The notes under the pieces were generated by a model. It was not told the DNA's origin. It saw nothing but the letters and a program-made list of their open reading frames with translations, and did no database searches. 64,000 nucleotides of DNA, taken from NCBI GenBank assembly GCA_023460085.1, contig JAEWRI010000046.1:202750-266749 (forward strand), given 5' to 3'. Origin of the DNA: Bacillota bacterium (GTDB taxonomy: Bacteria; Bacillota; Clostridia; Christensenellales; SZUA-584). Shown in pieces: positions 16,726-64,000 of this stretch (the stretch's first letter is position 1; each line of letters opens with the position of its first letter). A program made the position numbers and the translations under genes.

Positions 16726-16840
16726 GGCCCATTTCCTCCTGTATTGTGTCCATATCATACCATAAAATCGGCACCGTTTCACGCTTCGAATGATTTCTTT
16801 TGTGTAGGCAGAAAATAAGCACATTGAAGGGAGTAACGCG

Positions 16841-46440: not shown

Positions 46441-47775
46441 TTATTCTGCCTTATCCTGCTTGTCCGACGTATCCTCCGGCCCTTTGCCCTCGCCTGTCTG
46501 CTCAGGCGGCTGTCCATACGGCGGCACGTTAGGCGTGCCATACGGCGGCTGTCCATACGGCGGCACGTTGGGCGCGCCATACGGCGGCTGTCCATACGGC
46601 GGCACGTTGGGCGCGCCATACGGCGGCTGTCCGTACGGCGGCACGGTGGGCGCGCCATACGGCGGCTGTCCGTACGGCGGCACGTTGGGCGCGCCATACG
46701 GCGGCTGTCCGTACGGCGGCACGTTGGGCGCGCCATACGGCGGCTGTCCGTACGGCGGCATCGGCGGCGCGGCGGCGTCCAGCGGCAGCAACCCCGCACA
46801 CTTCTCCGTCATAAAATGATCCGCCCCAAAACGCACCAGCACGCGCGTCCCCGCTTGTACGGAAAAATACAGCGGTTGCGCTTCGTGACCGCTGCCGTCC
46901 ACGGCGCGCAGCGCATTCTGCTGCTGCGCCGTCTGTGCAGAAAGCAGCTGCCCGTCCGCAATGGGGCCCAGCGTAAACCCGTTCAGGGAAAATGTCCAGC
47001 TCAAATCACACCCTTCGCCTTCACCGTCACGCAGTATATCGATGAGCGCGGGCCTTGCCAGCGGGACAAAACGAATCCCCGCGGGCGGCGCGGCAGGCTG
47101 CGTCTGTGCGGGCGGTGCGGGCGGAGTAATGCCCGTGGAGGCTTCCGGTACAAAACGGTCCACCTTGAAATGGATCTCGGCCTGGCCGCCGCTTTCCACA
47201 TTAAAGCGCAGCGGCATGCACTGTGTGCCGTCGTCGCTGACCGCGGTCAGCGTATTCTGGCGCTGCTTCGTGCCGGTGCGGCGGGACGCGCCGTTGCCGA
47301 GGCTGCCCACCGTCTCGTCGTTCAGTGCAAATGTCCAGCTGGTAATATCGCCGCGCAGGCTGGCGTCACGCACGATTTCCAGCGTGGCAGGCTCGTCCAG
47401 CGGATCCGCCGGTGCCTCGGGCTGCGCACCAAACGGCGGCGCGCCCCAGGGCTGTGCACCGTACGGCGGCATGGGCGCGTACGCACCCATCGGCTGCGAC
47501 GGATAATAATCGCCCGGCTTACAACTCTTGGCAGCAAGATATGCGGCCAAGCCGCCCAATCCCGCCATGCCGTAAGACAGCAACAGCAGGTATAACATAC
47601 TGCTCAACTCATCAATACTCCATCCAAACAGGGACACGCCGATAATCGCCCCGGTAATCTCAAGCCCGAACCATAGTATGAGCGTCAGAAAGATAAACAG
47701 ACCGGGACGGCGGCCCCGCGCCAACGCCAGCTTCTTATTGTGCATGGCCAGCAATACGCCGATTACGATATCCAT
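46441..47775 (-). CDS. Membrane protein with duplicated internal domain and C-terminal ([13 protein letters not shown])n tail
   Basis: Start set to MDIVIG (ATG 47773-47775 behind AGGAGG). 3-4 N-terminal TM segments. Two homologous ~85-aa domains (..[21 protein letters not shown].. and ..[22 protein letters not shown]..). 6.5 copies of a 13-aa Pro/Tyr/Gly repeat. Confidence 0.65.
46504..46758 (-). repeat. In-frame 39-bp tandem repeat, about 6.5 copies, encoding PPYGQPPYG[AT]P[NT]V
   Basis: Direct reading: ccatacggcggctgtcc[ag]tacggcggcacg[tg]t[ga]ggcg[cg]g is repeated head-to-tail with only a few substitutions. Confidence 0.9.
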
Positions 47776-47818
47776 TCCCAAAACCTCCTGCGCCGATAGC
47801 GGCGCGCTACGATGCTCT

Positions 47819-47827
47819 ATTATATCA
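47819..47827 (-). promoter_or_regulatory. Candidate extended -10 promoter element (TGATATAAT) for 46441..47775
   Basis: The minus strand reads TGATATAAT about 45 nt upstream of the ATG. No good -35 element is seen. Confidence 0.35.
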
Positions 47828-47857
47828 CAGATACCCCGCCGCCCGCACGGGGCGGGA

Positions 47858-47893
47858 CGGAAAATGCAAAGGCCGCCCGGCAGGGACGGCCCT
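47858..47893 (-). terminator. Candidate terminator after dapL
   Basis: The minus strand reads GGGCCG-tccctgccgg-CGGCC, followed by UUUGCAUUUU. Confidence 0.45.
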
Positions 47894-47897
47894 TGTT

Positions 47898-49115
47898 TCA
47901 CACATGAAGCTTTGCGAATCGTTCCATGGCGCGCGCGGTGTTCTCCTGCGTATTGAACGCGGTCAGGCGGAAGTACCCCTCGCCCGCGCTTCCAAAGCCC
48001 GCGCCCGGTGTTCCGGCCACACCCGCGTCCAGCAGCGCGTCAAAGAAGTCCCACGAGGGCATGCCGCCCGGCGTCTTCAGCCAGATGTAGGGCGAGCTGA
48101 CGCCGCCGTAACACGCGATGCCCAACGCCGTAAGCCCTTCGCGGATGAGCTTTGCGTTGCCAAGGTAATAGTCGATGGTATCCCGAAGCTGCGCCTTGCC
48201 TTCTTCGGAATAGCAGGCCAGCGCGCCCTTCTGCGTCACATACGGCACGCCGTTGAACTTCGTGGTGTGCCGACGGTTCCACATCGCGTTGAGGCTGTGC
48301 AGATTGCCGTCCTCGTCCGCGCCCTGCAACTCCCGCGGGATGACGGTGAACGCGCAGCGCGTACCCGTGAAGCCTGCTGTCTTGGAGTAGCTGCGGAACT
48401 CGATGGCCACTTCCTTCGCGCCCTCAATCTCGTAAATGCTGTGCGGCACGTCGTCCTCGCGGATAAACGCCTCGTACGCCGCGTCAAACAGTATGAGCGC
48501 GCCGGTTTTGCGCGCGTAATCCACCCATTCCTTCAGCTCGGCGGTATGCAGCACCGTACCGGTGGGATTGTTGGGATAGCACAGGTAGATGATGTCCACG
48601 TCGCGCTGCGGCAACGCGGGCTTGAAGCCGTTCTCCGCGGTGCACGGCAGGTAGGTGATATTGCTGTATTGGCTGGTCGCTTCATCGAAGTCGCCCGAAC
48701 GGCCCGCCATCACGTTGGTATCCACATACACGGGGTAAACCGGGTTCAGCACGGCGATATCACACATGGGAGAGAACAGCTCCTGAATGTTGCCCGTATC
48801 GCACTTCGCACCGTCCGACACAAAAATTTCGTCGGGCGCGATGCCAAGGCCCGCATAGTCGCTGCCCGCGATGGCCTCGCGAAGCCAGTCATACCCCTGC
48901 TCCGGCCCGTAACCGTGAAAGCCTCCCTGCGATGCCATATCATCCACGGCCTTGTGCATTGCCTCGGTAACGGCCTTGGGCAGCGGGCGCGTCACGTCGC
49001 CGATGCCCAGCTTGATAATATCCTTGCTTCGGGGATGCGCCGCGATTCGTTTTGCCATCTCAGAAAACAGATAGCTGCCGCGCAGCCGGGTATAGTTGTC
49101 GTTGATCAGTACCAT
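47898..49115 (-). CDS. dapL: LL-diaminopimelate aminotransferase
   Basis: 405 aa. N-terminal [15 protein letters not shown] pattern. PLP-lysine context [13 protein letters not shown]. Full-length DapL-type fold-I aminotransferase. Confidence 0.85.
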
Positions 49116-49129
49116 GCGGTTTCTCCTTC

Positions 49130-49400
49130 TATTTAAAAAGTAATCTGATATCGTTTCTTCCCCCTCGGAAACAGCCGCCCCTCAAAGCCGAAACGCCACG
49201 TAACCCCGGGCAGACCACCAACCGCAACGGTCTCCGCAGTGGGGCCTGACGCGTATCCCGTCCGGCATGACGACCCATCCCCTTCATTCTAGCGTCCGAG
49301 CCGCCCCGCGTCAATATTGCCCCCGGCACTCGCTGTCGATGTTTCCCGTTTATTACCATACAATTCCATCCTCAACCTGGTTTTGCCCTGTTTCGTTTTC
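49130..49400 (-). promoter_or_regulatory. Long GC-rich structured 5' leader of dapL (candidate riboswitch, possibly lysine-type)
   Basis: About 270 nt without a credible ORF between a TATAAT box (minus strand, 49431-49436) and the dapL RBS. Many complementary G/C segments. Partial resemblance to the L-box core (GAAGGGGA..GUCG..GCCGGA). Not confirmed. Confidence 0.3.
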
Positions 49401-49447
49401 CCAAAAAGCGTTTATATGAAGCATAAGCGTATTATAAGGAAACGTGT

Positions 49448-50230
49448 ATGGAATGGTTTATCGGAATTTTTGTATTCATGATCGGCATTGTGATTGGCAG
49501 CTTTCTGAACGTCTGCATCTACAGGGTGCCGCTGGGCGTCTCCATTGCCAAGGGGCGCTCCGCATGCCCGCAGTGCGGCGCGACGCTGACTGCGCTCGAT
49601 CTGGTGCCGGTACTCAGCTACCTCGCGCTGCGCGGTAAGTGCCGCCATTGCGGCGCGCATATTTCGCCCATATACCCTGTTGTAGAGGGCGCAACGGGCG
49701 TGCTGTTTCTGCTGCTTTATTTGAAAACGGGGCTGAGCTGGGATCTTCCGGTGTATGCGGCGCTTGTCTCGCTGCTCATTGCCATCGCCTTTGTTGACTA
49801 CAAACACATGATCATCCCGAATGGCTTTGTGATAGCGGGGCTGATCATCGGCATCATCAAGCTGGCAGTCTCCATATTCACGGATGCATTTGGTTCCTGG
49901 ACACTGTACGCCATCGGCTTCGCTGCGGGCGCGCTGCCGTTGCTGCTTGTGATGGTCTTCTGCGCATTGATCTTGAAAAAGGAAGCCGTCGGCGGCGGCG
50001 ATATCAAGCTGATGGCCTTCGCGGGGCTGATACTGGGCTGGCAGCTCATCATTCCCGCATACCTCATCGGTGTTGTAGCCGGGGCTGTCGCCGGATTGGC
50101 GCTGATGGCGGCAGGAAAGAAGCGGCGCGGCGATGAAATCCCCTTCGGCCCCTTCCTGTGCTTTGGCATACTCGTCAGCGTATTCTTCGGCAACGAGCTC
50201 ATCCTTTGGTACCTGGGGCTGCTGAGATGA
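49448..50230 (+). CDS. pilD: Prepilin peptidase (A24 family, PilD)
   Basis: N-terminal Cys pairs CPQCG/CRHCG. Catalytic Asp contexts AFVDYKH and GGGDIKLMA. 260 aa, polytopic. Confidence 0.85.
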   Translation: MEWFIGIFVFMIGIVIGSFLNVCIYRVPLGVSIAKGRSACPQCGATLTALDLVPVLSYLALRGKCRHCGAHISPIYPVVEGATGVLFLLLYLKTGLSWDLPVYAALVSLLIAIAFVDYKHMIIPNGFVIAGLIIGIIKLAVSIFTDAFGSWTLYAIGFAAGALPLLLVMVFCALILKKEAVGGGDIKLMAFAGLILGWQLIIPAYLIGVVAGAVAGLALMAAGKKRRGDEIPFGPFLCFGILVSVFFGNELILWYLGLLR

Positions 50231-50973
50231 AGCGGTTACGTTCTGAAAAAGGCTTTACGCTGTTAGAAACCCTCCTCGCGATTGCCATCATTGCGGCGAT
50301 CGCGCTGCCGCTTTTTTCAATCTTTCTGCAGTCCGTCAAAACCCAGCAGGCCGCTAAGGGCATACTCAGCGCGAACTACATCTCGCAGGATTATATCGAA
50401 AAGCTGGATACGATGACCTACAGCGATGCGCTGTCGACACTGCCCAGCCGTACCTACACCAACGGGTATTACCTCAGCGCCGCGATCGAACCGTACGGAT
50501 CGGGAGGCGGGCTGTTCGATGGTTCCTGCGACTACGCGCAGCTGTTGTTTTATGACGACGGGCGCATGCTCGCGGTGCTGCCCGATGGGAAATGGCATCT
50601 TTATTCCGCGGTTCCGGCAACCATCTTGCTAAGCTCCAGCGGCGCGTCCTACTCCTTCATGGCCGGCGGCGTTACGCTGACCGGAAGCATGGAAAGCCTG
50701 AACTGTGTGGTCGTCATCAACGCCATGGCCAAGCCCTCCGGCACCGCGTGCAATATTACGCTGAACTCCGCTTTTAAGGCGCTGCGTTATTGTCTGAAAT
50801 ATGACGCGGCGGATATTGCGCTGGCGGGTACGGGCGAGACCTACTGCGATCTGATGGCAGGCGATACGTCTCTCGTCCATGTGACGACGCGTGTTTACGA
50901 GGATGCGGCGGGCGGCACGCCGGTCGCCACCGCGGAAGGCTATATCAGCATCAGGAACTGGAATGAAGACTAA
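50227..50973 (+). CDS. Type IV (pseudo)pilin with prepilin cleavage/methylation motif
   Basis: Start set to MKRLRSEKG|FTLLETLLAIAIIA (ATG 50227 overlaps the pilD stop codon). Classic G-FTLxE class III signal. Confidence 0.7.
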   Translation: MKRLRSEKGFTLLETLLAIAIIAAIALPLFSIFLQSVKTQQAAKGILSANYISQDYIEKLDTMTYSDALSTLPSRTYTNGYYLSAAIEPYGSGGGLFDGSCDYAQLLFYDDGRMLAVLPDGKWHLYSAVPATILLSSSGASYSFMAGGVTLTGSMESLNCVVVINAMAKPSGTACNITLNSAFKALRYCLKYDAADIALAGTGETYCDLMAGDTSLVHVTTRVYEDAAGGTPVATAEGYISIRNWNED

Positions 50974-51379
50974 GCGCGGATTTACATTGATAGAAGCTCT
51001 CCTGGCGCTGGCGCTCTTAACGGTCACAGCGGGGCTGATGTATACCTTTTTCTTTCAGGGCTTCACGCTGTACACCTCGGAGACAAAGACCGCAGCGGAG
51101 CAGGCGTCCCTGCGGCAGGTGCTTTCCGACATCACGAACCGCGTAAGGCTGACTGATAAGGATGACATCCGCTATACCGACGGCGTTCTGTGCATTCAGG
51201 ATGCGCGGTATACCTACGACAGCGCGGAGCATCGTGTACAGCGCGGCGACAGCATACTCGCGGATAACATCGCGGCGTTCCGCGTGACACTGAGTGACGA
51301 CCTGCTCGAGATCCGCATCGAAAGCACCTCGGGTACCGTCATGACCACCTCGCTCTCGCTGGTGGACTCAGGCGGATAA
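50963..51379 (+). CDS. Type IV (pseudo)pilin with prepilin cleavage/methylation motif
   Basis: Start set to MKTKRG|FTLIEALLALALL (ATG 50963), overlapping the upstream gene end. Confidence 0.7.
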   Translation: MKTKRGFTLIEALLALALLTVTAGLMYTFFFQGFTLYTSETKTAAEQASLRQVLSDITNRVRLTDKDDIRYTDGVLCIQDARYTYDSAEHRVQRGDSILADNIAAFRVTLSDDLLEIRIESTSGTVMTTSLSLVDSGG

Positions 51380-51477
51380 CAGATTGAACGGATTTTGTAC
51401 AGCGGGCAGCTTACTCCTGAGGCAATGCATCGGAAGGAAGACAGAATTACCGGATGATGTACAGGAAGGTGTATGGT

Positions 51478-52941
51478 ATGAAAAAAAAGGTGAAAAGAAA
51501 TCGCAATGGCTCTGCAATCATCATGGCGATGGTGACGATGATGGTACTTCTGCTGCTGGGGCTTGCCGTCGCAACGGTATCGATGGGCACGCTCCGCACC
51601 AACGTAGCGGATGCCGTCAACAACGACGCCTACTACGCAGCGGAGTCGGCCGTCGCCAGCGCCATCGAACAGCTTAAATACGAAGTCTCGGCATATTACG
51701 CCGACATGCTGGAGGCCAGTAGCAGCGAATGCGGCACGCTGTATTCGGCGTTCTTTGAAGGCATTAATCAAAACGCGAAGTGGAATTTTCACGAACCTTC
51801 TTTCAATGGAATCATCACCTCCACCACGTTCACCACGGGCAGCTACGACAGCGAAGACGAGGTCTGCGAATTTCTCGTATCATGCACGGCCAAAGCGGAC
51901 AACGGCACACGCTACCGCGTGGACGGCGCGCTGTACGTCAAGAAGGTGGATGTGCGCACAACCAGCGCCGTCTGGCTGGAGATCGATGATGCGGCACTCA
52001 AGGCGGGGGGCACGATCGCGCTCGGCAGCACCAACGGCATGAGCATATCAGGCGGCAACGTCTACACCTCCGCGCTCACCTATACGCGCTCCTGGCTGCC
52101 CTACAACATTTCAGGCGGCCAGTTGATCCTCAGTCCAGGGGTGGCCGCCACCATCAACGACTGCCTCACCTACCCCTCCTATTCGGACCCGGTGATGAGC
52201 GATATCGATCTGTACTGCACCGCCAATACCACGGTCAACTGGTCCAACGTACCCGCCGCCACCGTAGGCATCACCACCGCGCCGGGTGTGACGTTGACCG
52301 TAACCTCCTGCACCGTGCCCGCCGGCATCATCTACGGACGGGGCAATACGGTAATCAAGGACTGCAATGTATATTCCGATGTATACAGCGACGGAACCCT
52401 CTCCATCAGCAACCAGAGCCTGTACGGAGACGTTCATTGCCGCGGTAACTTAACCATCAGCAACTGCACCGTGTATGGCGACGTGTACTGCGACGGCACC
52501 GTAACGTTCTACAGCGCCGCGCTCAAGGGCTCCATATTCTCCTCGGGCGCCATCAAGATGAACGATGGCTCGATGACGGGCAGCCTGCTCTCCATGAGTA
52601 CGGTCACGGTATCCAGCGCGAGCATCGTCAAGGGCATCGTCTATTCTCACACCAAAATCTACTGCGGCAACATGAGCGCAAGCGCCGTATTTTTCTCCGG
52701 CGGGGATATCGAGATTACCGGCAGCATGTCGCTGTCGGGTGCGATGATCGCCAAGGGCAACATCGGCTTCGGAGGGGAAAGCTCTCGCTGGCTCACCATC
52801 AGCTACTCGCATTCCAAGATACAGGATGTCATGTCCAACGAAAACAACGCCGCCATGTTCAGCATCAGCGGCGGCCAACCGAAGCTGGACGAGGACGTAT
52901 TCGTGCGGCAGAGCATCACCGCACAAGGCAGACTATCATAA
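51478..52941 (+). CDS. PilX-N-like membrane-anchored protein with beta-helical repeat C-terminal region
   Basis: Start set to MKKKVKRNRNGSAIIMAMVTMMVLLLLG (PilX_N-like, no G-F-T-L-E). The C-terminal half carries degenerate ~17-20-aa repeats (GDVHCRGNLTISN / GDVYCDGTVTFYS / GSIFSSGAIKMND / GSLLSMSTVTVSS / GIVYSHTKIYCGN), as in bactofilin/polymer-forming beta-helices. Confidence 0.55.
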   Translation: MKKKVKRNRNGSAIIMAMVTMMVLLLLGLAVATVSMGTLRTNVADAVNNDAYYAAESAVASAIEQLKYEVSAYYADMLEASSSECGTLYSAFFEGINQNAKWNFHEPSFNGIITSTTFTTGSYDSEDEVCEFLVSCTAKADNGTRYRVDGALYVKKVDVRTTSAVWLEIDDAALKAGGTIALGSTNGMSISGGNVYTSALTYTRSWLPYNISGGQLILSPGVAATINDCLTYPSYSDPVMSDIDLYCTANTTVNWSNVPAATVGITTAPGVTLTVTSCTVPAGIIYGRGNTVIKDCNVYSDVYSDGTLSISNQSLYGDVHCRGNLTISNCTVYGDVYCDGTVTFYSAALKGSIFSSGAIKMNDGSMTGSLLSMSTVTVSSASIVKGIVYSHTKIYCGNMSASAVFFSGGDIEITGSMSLSGAMIAKGNIGFGGESSRWLTISYSHSKIQDVMSNENNAAMFSISGGQPKLDEDVFVRQSITAQGRLS

Positions 52942-52951
52942 GGAGAACGCT

Positions 52952-53989
52952 ATGATCAGGCAAACCCCAACCGTGGCCATCGACATCGGCCATTCGAATC
53001 TCAAGATGGTTCATACCGCGCCGGACGGCCGCATACTCCGCTTTGTGGTGCATAAAATGCCCGAGGGCTGCGTGGAGGACGTGAGCATACTTTCGGAAGA
53101 CGCGCTGATAAGCTCACTGAAAAACGCGCGGCACACCGCACACCTGACGGCAGGCAAGTGCAATCTGGTGCTGAGCGGCAGCGACATCATTATCCGCCAT
53201 TTCACGCTGCCCGTGCTGCCCGAAGACGAGCTGTACCAGAACATCATCAACGAGATGTCCGGCTACCTGCCCGTTGATCCGGACAAGTACTGCATCGATT
53301 ATAAGATAGCCGGACGTGTACAGGAGGACGGCGTGGACATGTACCGTGTGCTCGTCACCACGGCCCACCGGCGGATCGTCAGCGGATACCGCAAGGCGCT
53401 GCGCCATGCGGGGTACGGCATCCGCGTCATTGATACCTGCGAAAACGCCATTGAAAAGCTGCTGCGCATCCGCTTCGAGAAGGAAGGCCAGTTCTGCGCG
53501 GATGAGGGCATTGCCGTTATCGACTTTGGCACGGCACACACCCGCGTACACCTTTACTATAAGGGCAGCTTCTTTGTGAGCAACGTCATCAAGCGGGCGG
53601 GAGAAAAAATTACCGAAGCCATTTCTCAGACGTCCGGCAAGGATGTGCTGACCGCCGAAACGATGAAGCGCGAAAACGACTTCCTGAGCGGCAGTCATAA
53701 GAACACCGATATCACCGCGGCAGTTACCTACGAGGTGGACTCGCTGCTGTTTGAGATTGCGCGCGTATTTGACTATTTTAAAAACCGCACCAAAAAAATG
53801 GTGGGCGCGATCTACATTGCAGGCGGCGGGTCGCTGCTCCCCGGTCTTCCGGAATATTTGTCGATGCATTTGAAGATGCCGGTTCGCTTTGCGAGCGAAC
53901 TGATGGTACTGCCCGGCAACGTGGACCCCAAGGGCTTTTCTTTCATGCTCAACGCCTATGCCGCCACCTTCAGGGAGGATGCCAAATGA
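52952..53989 (+). CDS. pilM: Type IV pilus assembly protein PilM (actin-like ATPase fold)
   Basis: Start set to MIRQTPTVAIDIGHSNLKMV (ATG 52952, AAGGAGA RBS). VIDFGTAHT and IYIAGGGSLLPGL phosphate-binding motifs. Confidence 0.8.
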   Translation: MIRQTPTVAIDIGHSNLKMVHTAPDGRILRFVVHKMPEGCVEDVSILSEDALISSLKNARHTAHLTAGKCNLVLSGSDIIIRHFTLPVLPEDELYQNIINEMSGYLPVDPDKYCIDYKIAGRVQEDGVDMYRVLVTTAHRRIVSGYRKALRHAGYGIRVIDTCENAIEKLLRIRFEKEGQFCADEGIAVIDFGTAHTRVHLYYKGSFFVSNVIKRAGEKITEAISQTSGKDVLTAETMKRENDFLSGSHKNTDITAAVTYEVDSLLFEIARVFDYFKNRTKKMVGAIYIAGGGSLLPGLPEYLSMHLKMPVRFASELMVLPGNVDPKGFSFMLNAYAATFREDAK

Positions 53990-54591
53990 AAAGCGACATC
54001 AATCTGCTGCAAAAGAAGAAAGGCAAGCAGTATTCCGCGCAGAAGATAGCGCTGATGCTGGTTTTCCTCGTGTTTTTCGCGGGGGCTGTTTACGCGGGCT
54101 TCACGCTGCCGCAGAACGCGCTCACCGCCGCCCAACTGAAAGCCGCGGGGCTCAACCGGGAGCTCACAGGCTCTTCGGGCGCCGGAGACAGCCTGAGTGA
54201 ACTGACCCAGAACTACCTGACGCGCAGCGAGCAGCTGGAAGCGCTCACCGCCATCGACGGGGCGCGCTCCGATATCAACGGCTATCTGGAAGCTGTGGAA
54301 AAATCGCTGCCCACCAGCGCCAATCTCTCTACGCTGACACTCTCCGGCAAGGAAATGTCCATTACGGGCGTCGCGCTGAGCGATGCGGACGTCGCCGCGT
54401 TCTGTCTGCGGCTGCGCGAGACCGGCGCGTTTGCCAATGTATTTCTGCAAAACAGCATTGCCCTGGAGGATTACGGCGTCACCTTCTCTCTTCTGGCCGA
54501 ACTGCCCGCTACGCTGGACAGCAGCGGTATACTGCCCGAGGAAACCGAGGCCGCAGAGAGTGCCGCCACTGCGGAGGAAACAGCATCATGA
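53986..54591 (+). CDS. pilN: PilN-like pilus assembly protein
   Basis: ATGA overlap with pilM. N-terminal INLLQ motif, then a single TM segment and a periplasmic-type domain. Confidence 0.65.
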   Translation: MKSDINLLQKKKGKQYSAQKIALMLVFLVFFAGAVYAGFTLPQNALTAAQLKAAGLNRELTGSSGAGDSLSELTQNYLTRSEQLEALTAIDGARSDINGYLEAVEKSLPTSANLSTLTLSGKEMSITGVALSDADVAAFCLRLRETGAFANVFLQNSIALEDYGVTFSLLAELPATLDSSGILPEETEAAESAATAEETAS

Positions 54592-55253
54592 GTATTTCAA
54601 AACGGGAAAAAGTACTGATCATCGTCGTCGTGCTGCTTGCGCTGCTGGGTGTATACTATCTGTATTACCTGAAGCCGTGCATGGAAAAAATTGAAGACCT
54701 GAAAGTGGAAATCGCCAGCAGCCAGGCGGAGCTTTCCACCCTGGCCCTGCAGAAAAGCCAGCAGGGAACGCTGGAGGAACAGCTGGCGGAGGTGGACGCG
54801 GGGCTTGCCAAATACGCGGACGGCAGCGCGCAGGCGTTCGATCAGCCGCCGATACTCGTATACCTCAGCAAGACCGCCGGGGATAACGCCATCAAGGGCG
54901 CTATCTACTTTGACTTTCCGGTGCAGGTGGGCCAGATTCAACGCTGCCCCATCACCATCACGGTGACATGCACCTACGACGGGCTGCGGAAGCTGCTCAG
55001 CGATTTATCCAGCGCGCCCTATCTGCTGCGCGTCACCTCAATATCCGCCGGTTTGCCCACCGAAGACGACGGTACGGATGAAACCGCCTCCGGCGATACG
55101 TCCGGAAGCACCGAACCTCAAACGCCGCTCATTCCCAATGGGCTGGAGGTCAAGCTGTCGCTGGATTTCTTCTGCCTCTCGGGTGAAATCCCCGTGGATA
55201 CCGTATATGAATTTGATACCGGACGTCAGTACGGCGGCGATATCTTCTATTAA
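54588..55253 (+). CDS. pilO: PilO-like pilus assembly protein
   Basis: ATGA overlap with pilN. TM segment plus coiled coil (MEKIEDLKVEIASSQAELSTL). Position after pilMN. Confidence 0.55.
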   Translation: MSISKREKVLIIVVVLLALLGVYYLYYLKPCMEKIEDLKVEIASSQAELSTLALQKSQQGTLEEQLAEVDAGLAKYADGSAQAFDQPPILVYLSKTAGDNAIKGAIYFDFPVQVGQIQRCPITITVTCTYDGLRKLLSDLSSAPYLLRVTSISAGLPTEDDGTDETASGDTSGSTEPQTPLIPNGLEVKLSLDFFCLSGEIPVDTVYEFDTGRQYGGDIFY

Positions 55254-55270
55254 TGGCATAAACCAAACCG

Positions 55271-55289
55271 GGGCCTTCGGGCCCTTTTT
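55271..55289 (+). terminator. Rho-independent terminator after pilO
   Basis: GGGCC-ttcg-GGCCC followed by TTTTT. Confidence 0.7.
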
Positions 55290-55332
55290 CTTTGCAGCCG
55301 CACGGCTTTCCCTTCCGCGAATCCCACATAAA

Positions 55333-55358
55333 CAGCCGCGGACCGATGCCCGCGGCTG
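55333..55358 (-). terminator. Terminator-like hairpin after the minus-strand surface-protein operon
   Basis: Perfect 9-bp stem CAGCCGCGG / CCGCGGCTG with an 8-nt loop. The minus strand continues UUUAUGU. Confidence 0.5.
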
Positions 55359-55384
55359 CTCTTCCATGCCTGGCGCAGACAGCG

Positions 55385-57211
55385 CTATTGAACAATCAGC
55401 GAGATACTGACCTCCGCCGAGTTCAGCGCGCTGCCATCCTCCGCGTCATAGGCTTCGTATCTTATGATGGCGGCATAAACCCCCTGCGGCAGCGGCGGGA
55501 GTGCCACGACACCCACACTCTCTCCCGGATTCAGCAGCCCCGAGGTAAATACCACGGTTCCATCGTTCAGCATCAGACTGACAACCATCTGGCAGCGGTT
55601 TTCCGCCGGGTTGGCAATGCTCACACTCGCGCTGCCTCCGCCGGACGGCAGTGTCAGAGACGCCATGCCCGGTATGGAGATGGACGGCTGCACGCGATAT
55701 TGTGCCGTTGCGATAAAGCGTTCGTCGGCCAGCACAGCACCCGTACCCACTTCGACGAACTGCACCTCTATGGCCTTCATGCCGATGCCCGAAACGGTTG
55801 CCCGGAACGTATAATCGGCATCCGCGGCCGCGAATCCGGCAGGCGGGCCGTACGCGTCCGTAAGGGGCAGCCAGCCGCCCGTATCTTCATCCAGATACTC
55901 CAGCGTTACATCGGAGGGCATGGTGAAGTAGGCGCGCACCTTCTTGCCCGCGTCGTCGTGGGCAGTGGTGGTGAGCATAAATGTCTGCGGCTCGCCGGCA
56001 AAGAATTCCGGCAGATCGGCGGTGACGGCCATGGGCTGCTCCACCGTCACGGCAATGTCCGTGCCGGCCAGCACGATACCCGTCCCCACCTCGACATACT
56101 CCACGCCTATCGTTTTCGCGCCGGGTTCAGTAAATTGAGCGCGCAGCGAAAGCGTTCCGTCTGCCACCGCAAAGCCCGTGTCCGGGCCGAATACCGCGGG
56201 AAGGGGCAGCCAGTTCCCCGTGGCGCTGTCCAGATATTCGACAGCAACGCCGGATGGAATGGCAAAGTACGCCCGCACCATCCTGCCCGCATCGCCGTTG
56301 GCTATCGTGGTCAGGCTGAACTGCGCGGGCCGTCCGACACGGAACGTCGGCACAGTGGCAGTCAGCTGCATCGCGCCGGTTACGGCAACGCCTTCAACCT
56401 GCTCGGCAAGCACTTCGCCGCCGTCCGTCTTCAGCTGAAATTTCAGGCTGTACGCGCCGGTACTGTGCGCGGTAAAGCGCACGTTCATCGAAGCCGTCCA
56501 GTCGGGCGTAATGCTCGCAAACGAACCCAGCGTGCCATCCGTCACAGTCTGCCAGACACCGCCGGTTTCCACCTCCAGCGTGCCGCTGCCGCCGGTAACC
56601 TCACAGCTGAGCGATCCCGCCAGCGTATCACAGCCCAAATCATCGCTTGTCACCGAAAGTGAAAATCCCGTCGGGGCGTTCGCGGCGATCTCTTCCGGCA
56701 CCGTGGTATCCAGCGCATAGACGGAGCGCCGGATGATATAGCCGTTGGTATTGACATAATACCGCCCGGTTACCGCACCACCCGCGTCCAGCACCCATAC
56801 CTTCGTAATGGCCGAAAAGGCAGGAGTCGCATCCACGCTGTTAAACCACGTGTACGTGGAATCCACATTTTCAGATTCCATATACTTGCGGATGATTTCA
56901 CGAAAATTGACGAATTTCGTGGTAACCCCGCTTACATACGCCTGGAATCGATCCATGACGTTGCTTCCCAGCGTATCAAAGTAAAACTTTGCCAGTTTCG
57001 CGCTGTCCGCGTCCGGTTCATCCTCATATACCATATAGGAAGTGAGAAGGTCATCATAGTCGATATAATAACAGTCGGTGCCGTCTGAAATCACGTACGC
57101 AACGGGAATATCCGTCGAGCCCGTGCCAAACACAACCCGCGCGGTGCCGAAAAGCGCCGCAACGGTCAGCAAGCCTATGATCGCAATCATCAACGCTTTA
57201 TTTCTCATCAT
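55385..57211 (-). CDS. Large membrane-anchored/secreted protein with tandem Ig-like repeats
   Basis: The track start is GTG. I prefer ATG at 57209-57211 or 57206-57208 behind GGAGAAG. N-terminal hydrophobic anchor (ALMIAIIGLLTVAALFG). Two clearly homologous ~110-aa repeats (..VRAYFAIPSGVAVEYLDSATGNWLPL.. and ..VRAYFTMPSDVTLEYLDEDTGGWLPL..). Confidence 0.6.
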   Translation of the reverse strand: MMRNKALMIAIIGLLTVAALFGTARVVFGTGSTDIPVAYVISDGTDCYYIDYDDLLTSYMVYEDEPDADSAKLAKFYFDTLGSNVMDRFQAYVSGVTTKFVNFREIIRKYMESENVDSTYTWFNSVDATPAFSAITKVWVLDAGGAVTGRYYVNTNGYIIRRSVYALDTTVPEEIAANAPTGFSLSVTSDDLGCDTLAGSLSCEVTGGSGTLEVETGGVWQTVTDGTLGSFASITPDWTASMNVRFTAHSTGAYSLKFQLKTDGGEVLAEQVEGVAVTGAMQLTATVPTFRVGRPAQFSLTTIANGDAGRMVRAYFAIPSGVAVEYLDSATGNWLPLPAVFGPDTGFAVADGTLSLRAQFTEPGAKTIGVEYVEVGTGIVLAGTDIAVTVEQPMAVTADLPEFFAGEPQTFMLTTTAHDDAGKKVRAYFTMPSDVTLEYLDEDTGGWLPLTDAYGPPAGFAAADADYTFRATVSGIGMKAIEVQFVEVGTGAVLADERFIATAQYRVQPSISIPGMASLTLPSGGGSASVSIANPAENRCQMVVSLMLNDGTVVFTSGLLNPGESVGVVALPPLPQGVYAAIIRYEAYDAEDGSALNSAEVSISLIVQ

Positions 57212-57225
57212 ACTTCTCCGGGCCA

Positions 57226-57903
57226 CTAACTTTTCCGGACCCTGACGTGAGAACGGTACCCTCCGTCTTCCAGCGCCGGTACAGTCAAATAATACTTGCT
57301 CCCGTTAAACTCCATCGCCTGACCGTCATACGTGACCGTGTAGTCGCCCGCCGGATTTACCACGACCGTAACGATCATATACCCTGCCGGTGCAACCCCC
57401 TGCTTAGCGGATACCGAATACGTAAACTCGGGAGTCGGTTCCACAGACTCGCTGGGAGAGGTGGAAGGGGATGTAGACGTCGACGGTGACGCGGTCGCCG
57501 TGGACGTGGGGCGCGGGGTTGTAGAAGGCCGCGGGGTACCGGAAGGCCTTGGAGTTGAAGTCGGAGGCGCGGGGGTTGCCGTTGTGCTCTCCGTTACAGT
57601 AGCGGTTGCACTCGCCGATACCGTTGCGGTCGGCGTTGAAACCCCTCCGGATATGCTCACCGTGGGCGTGGGCGTGGGCCCTGCCAACGGCACCGATTCC
57701 TGGGGCAGTGATTCCACCGGGACAGGCGTAGGTATCATGGTGATCTGCGAAATCTGATGCTGCGCCCTGACCAGCGCGCCAACCAGAAACGCGATGCCGA
57801 CGATGACAACAATATGCAGGGGAATCAGCACCAGCCTTCTTCTTCTTTTTTTCTCTTCTTCAGGGTCTTGGCTTCTCGTGCTGCGTTTATTATCTTCAGC
57901 CAT
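57226..57903 (-). CDS. Single-pass membrane protein with Pro/Thr/Ser-rich stalk and small C-terminal domain
   Basis: Start set to MAEDNKRS (ATG 57901-57903 behind GGAGGG). Basic cytoplasmic head, TM segment (LVLIPLHIVVIVGIAFLVGALV), ~110-aa PT/ST-rich linker and a ~70-aa beta-rich end. Confidence 0.55.
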   Translation of the reverse strand: MAEDNKRSTRSQDPEEEKKRRRRLVLIPLHIVVIVGIAFLVGALVRAQHQISQITMIPTPVPVESLPQESVPLAGPTPTPTVSISGGVSTPTATVSASATATVTESTTATPAPPTSTPRPSGTPRPSTTPRPTSTATASPSTSTSPSTSPSESVEPTPEFTYSVSAKQGVAPAGYMIVTVVVNPAGDYTVTYDGQAMEFNGSKYYLTVPALEDGGYRSHVRVRKS

Positions 57904-57969
57904 GGGTTTGCCCTCCAATACGGATTTCGTACAAATGCAGGCTATGGGGACCATATATTTAAGGAAGAA

Positions 57970-58650
57970 CTACTGCCCTTCTTCAGGGGGTGAACCTTCC
58001 CGAACATCCCTGCGTGTTTTTCTTTTCCGGATTACTTGATGCAGCAGCAGCGATATCCCCGCGACAGCCGCCGCTCCCGCTGCCCACCACCAGTATGGCA
58101 CGGATGCCAGAAAGCCAGTGGACGGCACGGCTTCATCGCCGCCGTCGCCCGCTTTGACGACGGTAAGAACCGTCTCCTTTTCCCATACCGTCTTATCCGC
58201 CGGGCGGGATACCACAGTGAACCGCAAGAATGCGGTGTATGTCCCGTCTGCTGCTGCCCGGAACGCTTCCGCATCGATTTCTACAGAGACGCTGTAGGCC
58301 TCCCCCGCCTCTCTTTCGTCAAACGACTCCGGTGGATCGAACGCTACGGCATACGGTATCGCATTGCCGTCCGCCGCTGCCAGCGCCCCGGAGGACAGCC
58401 CAATGCTGAGCGTCTCCCCGCTTGCCAGCAACAGCTCGCCTATGGCAAACTCGCCCAGCGTCATGCGCGTGTTGGGATAATACAGTTCCGCGTCAGGCGG
58501 CGGCGTGAACGAATACATGGGTTCAACCACGCACTGTACGTCACTGGATGTCAGCCCCGCGCTGGCAGACGCCGCCGAAACGCCCGCAGGCAGCCACGCC
58601 AAAGTAAGCAGGACTGCCGCAGCAACGTAAAAATTGCGTCTGTGCTTCAA
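57970..58650 (-). CDS. Cell-wall-sorted protein: stand-alone copy of the FT[IV]-module plus VPSTG sorting signal
   Basis: TTG start behind AAGGAGAG. Signal peptide (..PAGVSAAS). ~130-aa module ending DGTYTAFLRFTVVS. VPSTG (58114..58128), then a 28-aa hydrophobic stretch and RKRKTRR. Confidence 0.65.
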   Translation of the reverse strand: MKHRRNFYVAAAVLLTLAWLPAGVSAASASAGLTSSDVQCVVEPMYSFTPPPDAELYYPNTRMTLGEFAIGELLLASGETLSIGLSSGALAAADGNAIPYAVAFDPPESFDEREAGEAYSVSVEIDAEAFRAAADGTYTAFLRFTVVSRPADKTVWEKETVLTVVKAGDGGDEAVPSTGFLASVPYWWWAAGAAAVAGISLLLHQVIRKRKTRRDVREGSPPEEGQ

Positions 58651-58729
58651 GATGCTCTCCTTTGATGAGGCGCAGGCTGAGCGCGAGCCATGGTTCAGCC
58701 CGCGCCCCGCCTCCTGATTTCACTTTGTT

Positions 58730-59947
58730 TTAGCCGTTATACGTAATGGTAAATACCATGGTGCCGCTGTAGCTGCCCGCCTTGACGATAGCGCCCGTGT
58801 CCACGGTCACACGGCCATCCTGCACCCCATCGCCAGAGAACGAGGCAAACTGCGCGCCAGCAGTCAGCGGACTTCCGCCGGCTGCCGTATTATACAGCGA
58901 GTAATTCAGCGTCGTAGCGGGAGTAGCCCCATCGCTCATCTTAAAGGTGCTTTGAACCGCAACATCGATATGAGCGCCTGCCTCAATTACCGCGCCCGAC
59001 GCAGCAACATCGAATTCCTGCGTTTTGGTGCCGTTGTCCTTAATCAATGTGCCGAGATTTACCACCGCCGGTATGGTAATGGTATAGACAGGGTTAACGT
59101 TGGCCGAAACATCGGTTCCCTCATCGGCGGCCACAAGCGTCAGCGACGGGTGGTTGACCGCGGCGTTGAAGATGTCGATCCTGTGCTGGGACATCATCAG
59201 CGTGGAGTTGCTCACCGTGTACGCAACCCCGGCACGCGGCTGGAAGCCGATGAAGTCAGGCGCAGCCAGCAGCGATTCGGAAAAGTCGATAGTGACGCCG
59301 CTCATGATAAGCGTGCCATCGTTTTTCCCGGAGAGCGATACGCGGCCTTTGGAAAGATACACATTCTCCAGCTTGTCCACGCTGCCCTTGCCCGCGTTGC
59401 TGTAATAAATACTGCCCGCAAAATCGCCTCCGCCACGGGCTTCCACCCGGACGCTTTTGATATACGATCCGCTGCCCAGCACTTCGATTATCTTATTCGC
59501 GCCGTTTGAATCCCAATAGTACTGGTTGTTGTTCGCAATCAGCGTCAGACTGTCCAGCGTTACGTTATTCCCGGCGAGCGTGATAAAGTTCTGCCAGTGC
59601 CAGTTACCGCCGGAAGCCGCGTCCACGACCTTGCTGCTGGTGATGACCGTGCCCGTGCCGCCTTTGATCGTGAGGTTGTTCGCCGTAATCGGGAAAATAA
59701 AGTCGGTTCCGCCATTGATGCTGATGGAAGAATACGTTGCCACCAGTCCAGGCGTCAGATCGAACGTCTTGTGCGACGCAAGCACCCACGTCTGATCATC
59801 AGCGCCGCCGCCTGCCTGACTTGCGATTGCCGCCGCAAGCTGTTCTGCCGTGCTGATGTTTACCGTGGTGCCAGCCGCGAGCGCCGCTGCGGGTACCATT
59901 GTCAGCACCAGTGCAACCACCAGGATAAGTATGAATGACTTTTTCAT
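58730..59947 (-). CDS. Secreted beta-helix protein with conserved C-terminal ..GTMVFTITY module (paralog 1)
   Basis: Signal peptide MKKSFILILVVALVLTMVPAAALA. The variable N-region is homologous to that of paralog 4. The last 121 aa form the conserved module. Confidence 0.7.
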   Translation of the reverse strand: MKKSFILILVVALVLTMVPAAALAAGTTVNISTAEQLAAAIASQAGGGADDQTWVLASHKTFDLTPGLVATYSSISINGGTDFIFPITANNLTIKGGTGTVITSSKVVDAASGGNWHWQNFITLAGNNVTLDSLTLIANNNQYYWDSNGANKIIEVLGSGSYIKSVRVEARGGGDFAGSIYYSNAGKGSVDKLENVYLSKGRVSLSGKNDGTLIMSGVTIDFSESLLAAPDFIGFQPRAGVAYTVSNSTLMMSQHRIDIFNAAVNHPSLTLVAADEGTDVSANVNPVYTITIPAVVNLGTLIKDNGTKTQEFDVAASGAVIEAGAHIDVAVQSTFKMSDGATPATTLNYSLYNTAAGGSPLTAGAQFASFSGDGVQDGRVTVDTGAIVKAGSYSGTMVFTITYNG

Positions 59948-60043
59948 TTTTTCTCCTTCGTTTTCTTATTGATATTTGCGGACACGTGACAACGCGATGT
60001 CATCGCATTGCTGTCACGGTCTTATCCGTTCTTCATCAAAAAC

Positions 60044-60079
60044 GCAGCCTGGATAAGCGGGGCTGAAGCTCAGTCCCGC
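60044..60079 (-). terminator. Possible terminator/attenuator between paralog 2 and paralog 1
   Basis: Minus-strand hairpin GCGGGACUGA-gcu-UCAGCCCCGC (one mismatch), then CAGCC..GGCUG and CGUUUUU. This is the only long (146 bp) spacer in the array. Confidence 0.4.
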
Positions 60080-60093
60080 CCCGGCCTTCGTCG

Positions 60094-61248
60094 TCAGTCG
60101 ACATAGGTAATCGTAAATACCATGGTGCCGCTGTAGCTGCCCGCCTTGGTGATAGCGCCCGTATTCACGGTCACACGGCCATCCTGCACACCGTTGCCAA
60201 GGAACGAGGCAAACTGCGCGCCCGTAAGCAGAACGCTTCCGTCTACTGCCGTATTGTACAGCGAGTAAGCCAGCGTCGTAGCGGGGCTGGCGCCATCGCT
60301 CATTGTAAAGCTGCTTTGAACCGCTACGTCGATATGAGCGCCCGCCTCAATTACCGCGCCCGACGCGGCAACATCAAATTCGCGTGTTTCGATGCCGTTG
60401 TCTTTAATCAAGGTGCCGAAGTTAACCACCGCCGGAATGGTGATGGTATAGACGGGATCCACTTTGGAATTGACCGCGGTGGTTTTGCCGCTGTACCTCG
60501 GGAACACCAGCCCATTGGCGGCGGAATAACCGGTGACCTGATTTTCCACATAGGCACCGTTATTGGCCGCGCTGATGGCCGCCACATCGTCATACGCATG
60601 CGCGTCCGGTGCGCCCGCGTTGGCGATGACCGCGATATCCACCGTGTTGCCGCCAAAGATGTTGCCTGTAAATGTGCACGTCGCATCGGTGCATACCACC
60701 CAGCCGCGCGTTCCGTATACCTTATTGTTGATAATCTGACCCGTTACGCCGCCGTCGATATAAGCCGGCTGACGCAGCGCCCTGACGAGGTTCCCTTCTA
60801 TCAGGAGGCCTGTGGCGTGAGGCGTGAGCAGCATCGCACGGGCAACTTCAGCATCTCCCAGCACATACTGCCCGGTAAAGGAGCAGTTCTTGACGACACA
60901 GTTGGCCCTTACGTTTACGATTCCCGCCTGCGCGGTCTTGTCCGTCTTCAGAATGGTCAGGCCATCCAGTGTCGCACCTGTCTGCATATCAAACACGATG
61001 CTGCTGCCGGATACGGTGATTTCGACACCCGTTGCTGCCGTAAGCGTTACGCCGCTCTTAACGGTATACACGGTGTTCAAGCTCATATCCGCCATAACTT
61101 TAACGACGGTGCCGGAGCTCGCTCCGGCGAGAGCGGTAGCAAGATCCTCTTTGGTGCTCACTTCCACCGGTGCGTCCGCCAACGCAACGGTGGGCACAAG
61201 CACGAGCACCATGATCAGCGCCAACATCAATGCGAGAGTCTTTTTCAT
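60094..61248 (-). CDS. Secreted beta-helix protein with conserved C-terminal ..GTMVFTITY module (paralog 2)
   Basis: Signal peptide MKKTLALMLALIMVLVLVPTVALA. Beta-helix-type repeats (VVKNCSFTG.., LLIEGNLV.., IINNKVYG.., TFTGNIFGG). The module is nearly identical to that of paralog 1. Confidence 0.7.
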   Translation of the reverse strand: MKKTLALMLALIMVLVLVPTVALADAPVEVSTKEDLATALAGASSGTVVKVMADMSLNTVYTVKSGVTLTAATGVEITVSGSSIVFDMQTGATLDGLTILKTDKTAQAGIVNVRANCVVKNCSFTGQYVLGDAEVARAMLLTPHATGLLIEGNLVRALRQPAYIDGGVTGQIINNKVYGTRGWVVCTDATCTFTGNIFGGNTVDIAVIANAGAPDAHAYDDVAAISAANNGAYVENQVTGYSAANGLVFPRYSGKTTAVNSKVDPVYTITIPAVVNFGTLIKDNGIETREFDVAASGAVIEAGAHIDVAVQSSFTMSDGASPATTLAYSLYNTAVDGSVLLTGAQFASFLGNGVQDGRVTVNTGAITKAGSYSGTMVFTITYVD

Positions 61249-61293
61249 TGGTTCTTCTCCTTAATTATGATTTCTTTGCGGTAACCGCTTTAA

Positions 61294-62634
61294 TTAATCC
61301 AAATAGGAAATCGTAAATACCATGGTGCCCCGGTAACTGCCCGCGGCAGTGATTGCGGATGGATCCACGGTGGTACTGCCATCCTCCGTGCCATTGCCTG
61401 TAAAGGTTGCAAATGCGGCGGGCGGGGTTATCTGCCCCGATTCGTTGCTCAGCGTATATGCCAAGGGTACGGAACCCGCCCCGTTATCGTCCTTCATCAC
61501 GAAAGGACCCGCAACGGATACAACGATGGAAGCCCCGTCGCCGACAAGTACATCTCTCGCCTCAATGTCGAACTCCTTCGTAACCGGACTGCCTTCCCTG
61601 ACAAGCGTACCGAAATCTATGGCAGCCGGAATCACGATGGTGTAGGCAGGACTGACATCTGCCGTTACCTCGGTACTGTCAAAATGCGGACAGGGCGCGC
61701 TGTCCCTGAGATCCAGCATGCTCGCGGTAAAGCCGGTAAACGTGCCGCCCCAGTAGACATCCGTGGATGCAAGGTACACCGACAGCGCGGGCGCATTGAC
61801 CACATTGCCCAGGATATCCGAGCCCGTTATCACCACATTGACCTGTGTGGATGCCCTGAATACGATGGCGTCCCCGCCCGGGCAGGATAGTACACTGTCG
61901 GTAATGGTGAGGGTACCATTATTGGCTGTGCCCGCAGTCTCGCCCAGGCGTACCGCGTAATCCGGCGCGTTGGCGTTAATGCGCACATTCGTCAGTGTAA
62001 TATCGCTGCTGTTGTTGGCATTGATACCGGAATTCGTATCATTTGTGACGATATTCTCCACCGTAAGCGTGTGGCATCGGGCCTGAACGACACAGTCGAG
62101 CCGCGCAAACGTGCAGTTCCGTATCGTAGTGTTATAGGCCGTATTGCCGCCCGAGGAACCAGCCTGCACCGCAAAGGTGTATTCTCCCGATTCGTCCCCG
62201 GTGAAATCACAATCCTCAATGGTCACGTTGTGCGCGTACTTTTTCATATCGATTGTGTACACATGCGTCGTAAGAGTGATTCCCGTCTTATCAAACGCCA
62301 GCCCGCGGATGGTCAGCGTGTCCGTACCCGCGTTTCTGTTTGCGCCGTCGATGACCATATTGCCTTGGAATACAGCCCCGGTTTGTCCGGCAATGACGAT
62401 ACTCTTGTCTGCCTGCTGCAGTATCTGCACCGTCTCGTTATAGGTACCGGCTTTCACCACGATTTCCCACGTTCCCGCGGCACCTGCCTGCACCGCGTCA
62501 ACCGCGGACTGAAGGGTCGTGTACGCCTCACCCGGCCCTACGTTGAGGGTGTAATCCGCCGCCAGCGCAATTGTCGGCATGAGTACCAGCATCATCATCG
62601 CTGCCAGCAAAATGAAAAGCGCTTTTTTCATCAT
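61294..62634 (-). CDS. Secreted beta-helix protein with conserved C-terminal ..GTMVFTISY module (paralog 3)
   Basis: Signal peptide MMKKALFILLAAMMMLVLMPTIALA. Right-handed beta-helix-like repeats (NVTIEDCDF, NTTIRNCTF, TLTVENIV, ITLTNVRI, TLTITDSVL). This is the most divergent copy of the module. Confidence 0.7.
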   Translation of the reverse strand: MMKKALFILLAAMMMLVLMPTIALAADYTLNVGPGEAYTTLQSAVDAVQAGAAGTWEIVVKAGTYNETVQILQQADKSIVIAGQTGAVFQGNMVIDGANRNAGTDTLTIRGLAFDKTGITLTTHVYTIDMKKYAHNVTIEDCDFTGDESGEYTFAVQAGSSGGNTAYNTTIRNCTFARLDCVVQARCHTLTVENIVTNDTNSGINANNSSDITLTNVRINANAPDYAVRLGETAGTANNGTLTITDSVLSCPGGDAIVFRASTQVNVVITGSDILGNVVNAPALSVYLASTDVYWGGTFTGFTASMLDLRDSAPCPHFDSTEVTADVSPAYTIVIPAAIDFGTLVREGSPVTKEFDIEARDVLVGDGASIVVSVAGPFVMKDDNGAGSVPLAYTLSNESGQITPPAAFATFTGNGTEDGSTTVDPSAITAAGSYRGTMVFTISYLD

Positions 62635-62674
62635 TGTTCTCCTTTTGAACTGATATTGCTGAGCGCGCGCCCGC

Positions 62675-63934: not shown

Positions 63935-63972
63935 TGGTTTTTCTCCTTCAAATGATTTTTAATCATCACCGA

Positions 63973-64000
63973 TTAATCCACATAGGTAATGGTAAATACC
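63973..64000 (-). CDS. 3' end of a fifth paralog (partial, runs off the window)
   Basis: The minus strand reads ..V F T I T Y V D stop, identical in style to the other module ends. It lies 38 bp upstream of the paralog 4 start. Confidence 0.5.

Follow-up and report, generated by a model that had tools for sequence, protein, structure and literature searches.

We analysed a block of seven type IV pilus (T4P) genes in a 64-kb stretch of DNA from an uncultured member of the Christensenellales (contig JAEWRI010000046.1, positions 202,750 to 266,749), which is called the window below and whose positions are used as coordinates. The block, referred to as the module, extends from pilD to pilO on the plus strand (49448-55253). 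Our results indicate that the module most probably represents the seven genes farthest from the promoter in a pilus operon of the Clostridia type (monoderm, type IVa pilus-like), which was split between pilA and pilD in an ancestor. The complementary part, pilB-pilT-pilC-pilA, was detected as a separate locus in the same assembly and sequencing run. The genes of the module, identified by Pfam and NCBIfam profile searches, are as follows (aa, amino acids).

49448..50230, plus strand: pilD, bifunctional prepilin peptidase / N-methyltransferase, 260 aa (A24_N_bact 1.9e-33; Peptidase_A24 2.1e-16)
50227..50973, plus strand: minor prepilin of 248 aa (pp248), MKRLRSEKG|FTLLE (N_methyl 3.8e-6; TIGR02532)
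50963..51379, plus strand: ComGF-like minor prepilin of 138 aa (pp138), MKTKRG|FTLIE (N_methyl 1e-6; ComGF model 5.3e-9, under its cut-off)
51454..52941, plus strand: PilX-like modular minor pilin, 495 aa (PilX_N 4.2e-5, slightly under the Pfam cut-off)
52952..53989, plus strand: pilM, actin-like cytoplasmic alignment protein, 345 aa (PilM_2 1.8e-25; TIGR01175 4e-33)
53986..54591, plus strand: pilN, bitopic membrane partner of PilM, 201 aa (PilN 1.9e-12)
54588..55253, plus strand: pilO / GspM-like bitopic membrane protein, 221 aa (T2SSM 1.6e-6; GspM 1e-8, under its cut-off; PilO 0.025)

An earlier note on this window had listed the same genes as a tightly coupled set, and both the list and the coupling were confirmed by the profile matches and the coordinates of the open reading frames (ORFs). 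All seven ORFs were at the positions given in that note and were matched by independent gene calls on the public source scaffold (ENA ERZ28599896, LEMO22-1_SAMN17215516_METAG-scaffold_12, 384,285 bp), on which window base 1 corresponds to approximately record base 312,644. Overlaps of 4 nucleotides (nt) were observed at pilD/pp248, pilM/pilN, and pilN/pilO, and an overlap of 11 nt at pp248/pp138; the gap between the PilX-like gene and pilM was 10 nt. As to the components that define a T4P, the A24 peptidase, class III prepilins, and PilM-PilN-PilO are thus encoded in the window, and PilB, PilC, PilT, and the major pilin are encoded at the partner locus described below.

The note had also stated that no PilB/PilT-type ATPase, PilC platform, or short major pilin is encoded in the 64 kb. 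Indeed, a six-frame motif search of the window gave no GxTGSGK[ST] motif (Walker A of the T2SSE type), and the only prepilin signals found in the six frames were those of the two module prepilins. When PilB, PilT, PilC, and PilA of the partner locus were compared with the window by tblastn, only chance matches of Walker-A size were obtained, with E values of at least 0.02. Neither the 64 kb nor the further 7.6 kb to the end of the scaffold contained an ATPase, platform, or short pilin gene.

The homologues of PilM fell into two groups, a close clade with 75-84% identity and a broader set with 54-64%; they are labelled in genome collections as metagenome-assembled genomes (MAGs) of uncultured Christensenellaceae, Christensenellales, or Clostridia. 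In the distant relatives (PilM 37-63% identical), the pil genes formed one contiguous block, pilB-pilT-pilC-pilA-pilD-prepilin-prepilin-PilX-pilM-pilN-pilO. This arrangement was read in loci L003, L004, L010, L012, and L022-L027, wherever the contig extends far enough, and the contigs with the full operons of L003 and L004 measure 3.30 Mb and 2.47 Mb. The first four genes encode PilB of approximately 565 aa (MshEN and T2SSE domains), PilT of approximately 349 aa, PilC of approximately 400 aa, and PilA of 117-158 aa, and the distal part contains prepilins of 246 aa and 135 aa followed by one or two PilX-like genes of 470-510 aa. The module corresponds precisely to genes 5-11, namely the last seven genes, of this 11-gene ancestral-type operon. 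In all relatives compared, orthologues of pp248 and pp138 occupied the same operon positions, and the pilO-like gene was the last. Members of the close clade (PilM 75-81%; L005/L021, which is the MAG OH_SDB_141, L008, and L038) have pilD to pilO without the first four genes, like the window; the arrangement was read only in the members whose contig covers the upstream side. In the more distant operons (L010-L013), a small DUF2992 gene of 137-158 aa was observed between pilC and pilA, and Christensenellales operons more closely related to the window lack this insertion.

The partner of the module was found by a homologue search with PilB of L003. A PilB homologue, P0092, was detected on contig k141_7145 of ENA ERZ27269013 (414,508 bp) and on Logan contig SRR13358366_9468 (locus L017), and the window sequence is present in the same assembly (k141_57360) and the same run (SRR13358366_3094 and _12467). 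The gene order in L017 is pilB-pilT-pilC-pilA followed by an ATP-binding cassette (ABC) transporter, and pilD to pilO are lacking. The locus encodes PilB of 564 aa (MshEN and T2SSE), PilC of 386 aa (T2SSF), and PilA of 117 aa (KKG|FTLIE); the 349-aa T2SSE protein encoded directly after pilB in L017, L028, and L032 is PilT. The guanine-plus-cytosine (GC) content of L017 (0.584) equals that of the window. Furthermore, the tetranucleotide correlation (r) between L017 and the window was 0.978, close to the values among the window's own thirds (0.982-0.986), versus 0.03-0.93 for the loci of other organisms. The identities of PilB, PilT, PilC, and PilA to outside relatives paralleled those of PilD and PilM of the window, with L023 nearest for both halves. 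From the shared sample, the composition, and the complementarity of the two gene sets, the window contig and the pilBTCA contig very probably belong to one genome. Two other PilB proteins (P0141 and P0142; 62-63% identical) were considered as partners and rejected, because their source organisms are more distant and have full operons.

A clade of PilB could also be recognised: 12 sequences shared 83-88% identity with P0092, which parallels the 13 members of the PilM clade, and all three loci of this clade that were examined, including that of P0092 itself, have pilBTCA only. In a second lineage, a pilBTCA-only locus (P0200) flanked in the same way, by PBP_like_2 upstream and an ABC transporter downstream, was present in SRR13401006 and ERZ27269055, samples that also contain L005 and L007 (GC 0.522 versus 0.517). 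In a third lineage, P0106 (L032) likewise lies in a pilBTCA-only locus with these flanks. Because the second lineage has a complementary pair and the third a pilBTCA-only locus, the split is older than the divergence of the clade, both halves having been retained. Each locus alone is not self-sufficient, and the two together rebuild the ancestral operon exactly.

These findings distinguish between the two explanations that the earlier note had offered. The first, that the motor genes are encoded elsewhere and the module is an accessory minor-pilin and alignment set, is supported by the pilBTCA locus in the same sample and run, its matching composition, the second complementary pair, and the pilBTCA-only locus of the third lineage. 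The other, a reduced pseudopilus, does not fit a module that equals genes 5-11 of an operon found undivided in every more distant relative. The note had also envisaged a second operon, complete with a pilD and pilMNO of its own; what was seen is a locus that lacks exactly the genes of the window. Hence, the apparently motor-less module is explained by the operon split and does not qualify as a new minimal pseudopilus.

The seven genes are under purifying selection. When the window was compared with L008 or L005, dN/dS (the ratio of nonsynonymous to synonymous substitution rates) was 0.08-0.39 with dS above 1 for all seven genes, pp248 against L005 being the sole pair without a computable dS. 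The values were 0.09-0.15 for pilD, 0.20 for pp248 (against L008), 0.26 for pp138, and 0.08-0.11 for pilM, and PilM of the module is 75-84% identical within the split clade. In PilD, an A24 peptidase with both catalytic aspartates, Cys40/43/65/68, Asp117, and G182-G-G-D185-I-K were invariant across eight orthologues; the four cysteines bind zinc. The N-terminal D-[IL]-N-L motif of PilN, DINLLQ in the window, was present in all seven orthologues compared and is presumably the PilM-binding segment, as in the family.

The 495-aa protein showed Bactofilin/FapA-like repeats, with profile matches below the cut-off, and its N-terminal hydrophobic helix (..RNG|SAIIMAMV) lacks Glu5, a feature typical of GspK/PilX-type capping subunits. 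An AlphaFold2 model built with 63 homologues had a mean predicted local distance difference test score (pLDDT) of 90.5. It consists of a helix of 68 residues (12-79), a three-stranded sheet (112-155), a beta-solenoid of approximately 270 residues (about 172-442), and a closing strand (475-486). The top PDB match by Foldseek was ComZ of Thermus thermophilus (6qvi; E 1.6e-4, probability 0.96), in which a beta-solenoid is grafted on a pilin fold, and the next matches were ice-binding and tapirin beta-helices. The protein is presumed to be a tip-associated modular minor pilin, and the solenoid is likely its ligand-binding part. One or two copies of the PilX-like gene were found in every related operon, with duplications in L003, L008, and L023; the pil operons of these Christensenellales always include this presumed ComZ-like beta-solenoid pilin, often labelled bactofilin or DUF583 in databases. 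The homologues P0218-P0286 are labelled bactofilin (CcmA), DUF583, DUF342 acyltransferase, or hypothetical in public sources. Such labels are likely misannotations of the modular pilin.

On this basis, and following the established roles of the component families, we propose that a break between pilA and pilD divided the ancestral 11-gene operon. The genes for the extension ATPase (pilB), the retraction ATPase (pilT), the platform (pilC), and the 117-aa major pilin (pilA) would have stayed together at another chromosomal site, leaving the pilD-pilO block standing alone, and the pilus machine would be built from both loci. PilD of the window would cleave and N-methylate PilA and the two minor prepilins, and PilB/PilT would be docked on PilC by a membrane alignment complex made of PilM-PilN-PilO, likewise from the window. 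Assembly would be primed by the two minor pilins together with the PilX/ComZ-like solenoid pilin, all of which would finish at the tip, and PilB and PilT would power extension and retraction. Uncultured Christensenellales appear to encode a complete retractile T4P, which bears on adhesion or DNA uptake. A literature search on T4P in Christensenellaceae gave nothing specific.

The flanks of the module were also examined, and the following features were recognised.

47898-49115, divergent from pilD: dapL (aminotransferase), upstream of pilD, from the ORFs and the scaffold gene calls
49116..49447, no strand: dapL/pilD intergenic region of 332 nt, which matches the breakpoint separating pilA from pilD
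55270..55293, plus strand: intrinsic terminator of the pilD-pilO unit, GGGGCC-TTCG-GGCCC then TTTTTCTTT, 17 nt past the pilO stop
about 55333-55362, minus strand: weaker hairpin, which serves the convergent surface-protein operon on the minus strand

The divergent dapL gene lies directly upstream of pilD, as the earlier note had described. In full-operon relatives, pilA and pilD are separated by approximately 100-200 nt according to the gene calls. The pilD-pilO unit is presumably transcribed from a promoter within 49116..49447, where a consensus scan detected a sigma-70-like site on the minus strand only (49314..49286), directed toward dapL. No Rfam match at the gathering threshold was obtained anywhere in the window, including this intergenic region. 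At the other end, the pilO stop (55253) and the stop of the convergent 607-aa gene (55385) are separated by 131 nt. A clean plus-strand terminator (GGGGCCTTCGGGCCC followed by a T-run) was found in this gap. The convergent operon ending approximately 130 bp away, with back-to-back terminators, was accordingly recovered, the minus-strand hairpin being the weaker of the two.

Several points weigh against the split-operon interpretation. The halves come from different contigs, one of 384 kb and one of 414 kb, and co-occurrence, composition, and complementarity are strong evidence, not proof, of one genome. Expression and filaments are predictions from the gene content. The consensus scan recognised no plus-strand promoter upstream of pilD. 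Finally, the match between the PilX-like model and ComZ had a low TM-score (0.18) and a sequence identity of 10-11%, and sequence profiles call the 495-aa solenoid bactofilin/FapA-like. Since the TM-score is only 0.18, any resemblance of the model to ComZ would be one of architecture (helix, small sheet, solenoid, and closing strand) rather than close superposition.

The neighbourhood of the module raises a different explanation, in which the module, with its motor in trans, is a dedicated pseudopilus or secretion-display device that pushes or displays Sec-exported beta-helix proteins through the wall. The neighbouring operon, including the one protein with a sortase-type signal, is located as follows.

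55385-64000, minus strand, continuing to L015 5469-7756: nine-gene surface-protein operon, which starts past the window beside divergent rplM-rpsI
57970-58650, minus strand: 226-aa surface protein with a sortase-type signal, ending in VPSTG, a hydrophobic stretch, and RKRKTRR

Five paralogues encoded in this operon have a Sec signal peptide, a beta-helix N-domain, and a common C-terminal domain of approximately 130 aa ending in GTMVFTITY[VI]D, from which the name FTITY is taken. This domain gave no Pfam match and no PDB sequence match, and an AlphaFold model built from the four paralogues of the window reached a pLDDT of only 53.6. The operon also encodes a 277-aa membrane protein, which is similar over its C-terminal approximately 100 aa to the C-terminal end of the 607-aa product of the last gene. 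No pil gene was present within the nine-gene operon. A gene with a sortase-like TLLTCES motif was observed at 16060-17055 (minus strand), 40 kb from the gene for the 226-aa protein.

In the window, the surface operon lies next to the module; L005/L021 have it directly upstream of, and co-directional with, pilD. The identities between the window and L005/L021 were 72% for the 607-aa protein, 60% for the 225-aa protein, 61% for the 226-aa protein, and 73% for the 445-aa protein. Because one inversion of the pilD-pilO block turns the L005 arrangement into that of the window, the two adjacencies appear, as judged from gene order, to be a single inherited state rather than independent events. The operon adjoins the module in two of the four split lineages and not in L008 or L038, although PilM of L038 is 81% identical to that of the window and nearer than that of L005; a cyclic nucleoside monophosphate (cNMP)-binding gene occupies its place there. 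In L008, a 607-aa gene upstream of pilD was considered as a surface-operon neighbour and rejected, as it was non-homologous by tblastn. The surface operon was not found within 10 kb of the pil operon in any relative with a full operon. Conversely, four distant metagenome loci (L034-L037) carry a homologue of the 277-aa protein and FTITY-domain genes in arrays, and the 4-11 kb available around each of these loci contained no pil gene. In the window, moreover, the two operons are convergent and separately terminated, and the surface proteins have ordinary Sec signal peptides, one with the VPSTG signal. Taken together, these results make a dedicated secretion or display device very unlikely. The functional link between the module and the surface proteins that had been raised as a possibility was not supported, and synteny of the module with the FTITY locus, which was checked across relatives, was not conserved. 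From their gene content, the FTITY loci look like an undescribed conserved surface-protein system in their own right.

The only precedent for secretion or display is the T4P-associated secretion of BsaC in Clostridium perfringens, in which a Gram-positive T4P gene set is reported to aid passage of folded proteins across the wall (PMC11580942). The surface proteins of the window are, however, unrelated to the TasA-like BsaA/BsaB and the vWA-domain BsaC, and the neighbourhood is common to two of the four split lineages here. A narrower variant, in which the pilD-pilO block was recruited beside the FTITY operon only in the sub-lineage of the window and L005 for T2SS-like (type II secretion system) export or attachment of large folded proteins, the motor acting in trans and the ComZ-like solenoid pilin serving as tip of the piston, is slightly more improbable still. 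In the distant full-operon loci L012/L013 (1355-7259), three tandem LRR_5/Flg_new_2 surface proteins of 607-621 aa, unrelated to the FTITY proteins, are encoded near the pil operon, and a divergent gene for leucyl-tRNA synthetase lies between them and pilB. Pil loci may often have arrays of surface proteins close by, though non-homologous between lineages.

It is about equally improbable that the genes specify a ComG-type competence pseudopilus or a T2SS-type pseudopilus instead of a true pilus. The 138-aa prepilin is ComGF-like (5e-9), the last gene scores best as GspM/T2SSM, and the PilX-like protein resembles the competence-associated pilin ComZ; the ComGF and ComGE matches of the module proteins were both below cut-offs. 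The module shares with the T2SS pseudopilus and its GspL/GspM platform a prepilin peptidase, minor pseudopilins, a GspK-like large subunit without Glu5, and a GspM-like last gene. However, the organism is a monoderm member of the Clostridia with no outer membrane, no conserved substrate genes accompany the module, and no GspD secretin, GspC, or GspL was found among the module genes or their neighbours by Pfam, NCBIfam, and gene calls. Among the products of the partner locus, furthermore, are the retraction ATPase PilT, which ComG operons are not known to encode, and a PilB with an MshEN N-domain. ComG operons contain no PilM/PilN/PilO homologues (PMC3244431), whereas the module has all three. 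DNA uptake is a possible function of a retractile T4P, but it would be a function of the pilus and not a different machine.

That the seven genes are a decaying, non-functional leftover of an operon whose motor, platform, and major pilin were lost, as their absence from the 64 kb and the 7.6 kb beyond might suggest, is the least probable of these explanations and is contradicted by the intact ORFs in at least four diverged lineages, the low dN/dS at saturated dS, the invariant catalytic and interaction motifs, and the PilB clade that mirrors the PilM clade.

Returning to the split operon, its combined gene set of PilD, PilB, PilT, PilC, a short major pilin, several minor pilins, and PilM-PilN-PilO, without a secretin, is that of Clostridial and other monoderm pil operons. 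T4P genes at more than one locus are already known in C. perfringens and many Gram-negatives. According to published surveys (PMC3244431), pilB and pilC of Clostridia occur in pil operons together with pilD, pilM, and pilN, and pilin genes can be located elsewhere than in the biosynthetic operons. The order in C. perfringens is pilD-pilB-pilC-pilA-pilM-pilN-pilO, and pil loci of Clostridioides difficile and Streptococcus sanguinis have also been described (PMC3244431, PMC6916266). Unlike these operons, that of the lineage studied here, an uncultured Christensenellales, is split between pilA and pilD, and its parts stand at two distant loci. What sets it apart is this lineage-restricted split, together with the constant presence of a presumed ComZ-like solenoid pilin, in an otherwise ordinary Clostridial T4P.

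Beside dapL, a 486-aa ORF was observed at 46441-47901 (minus strand), which has near-identical C-terminal repeats, a membrane segment, and two mutually similar domains.

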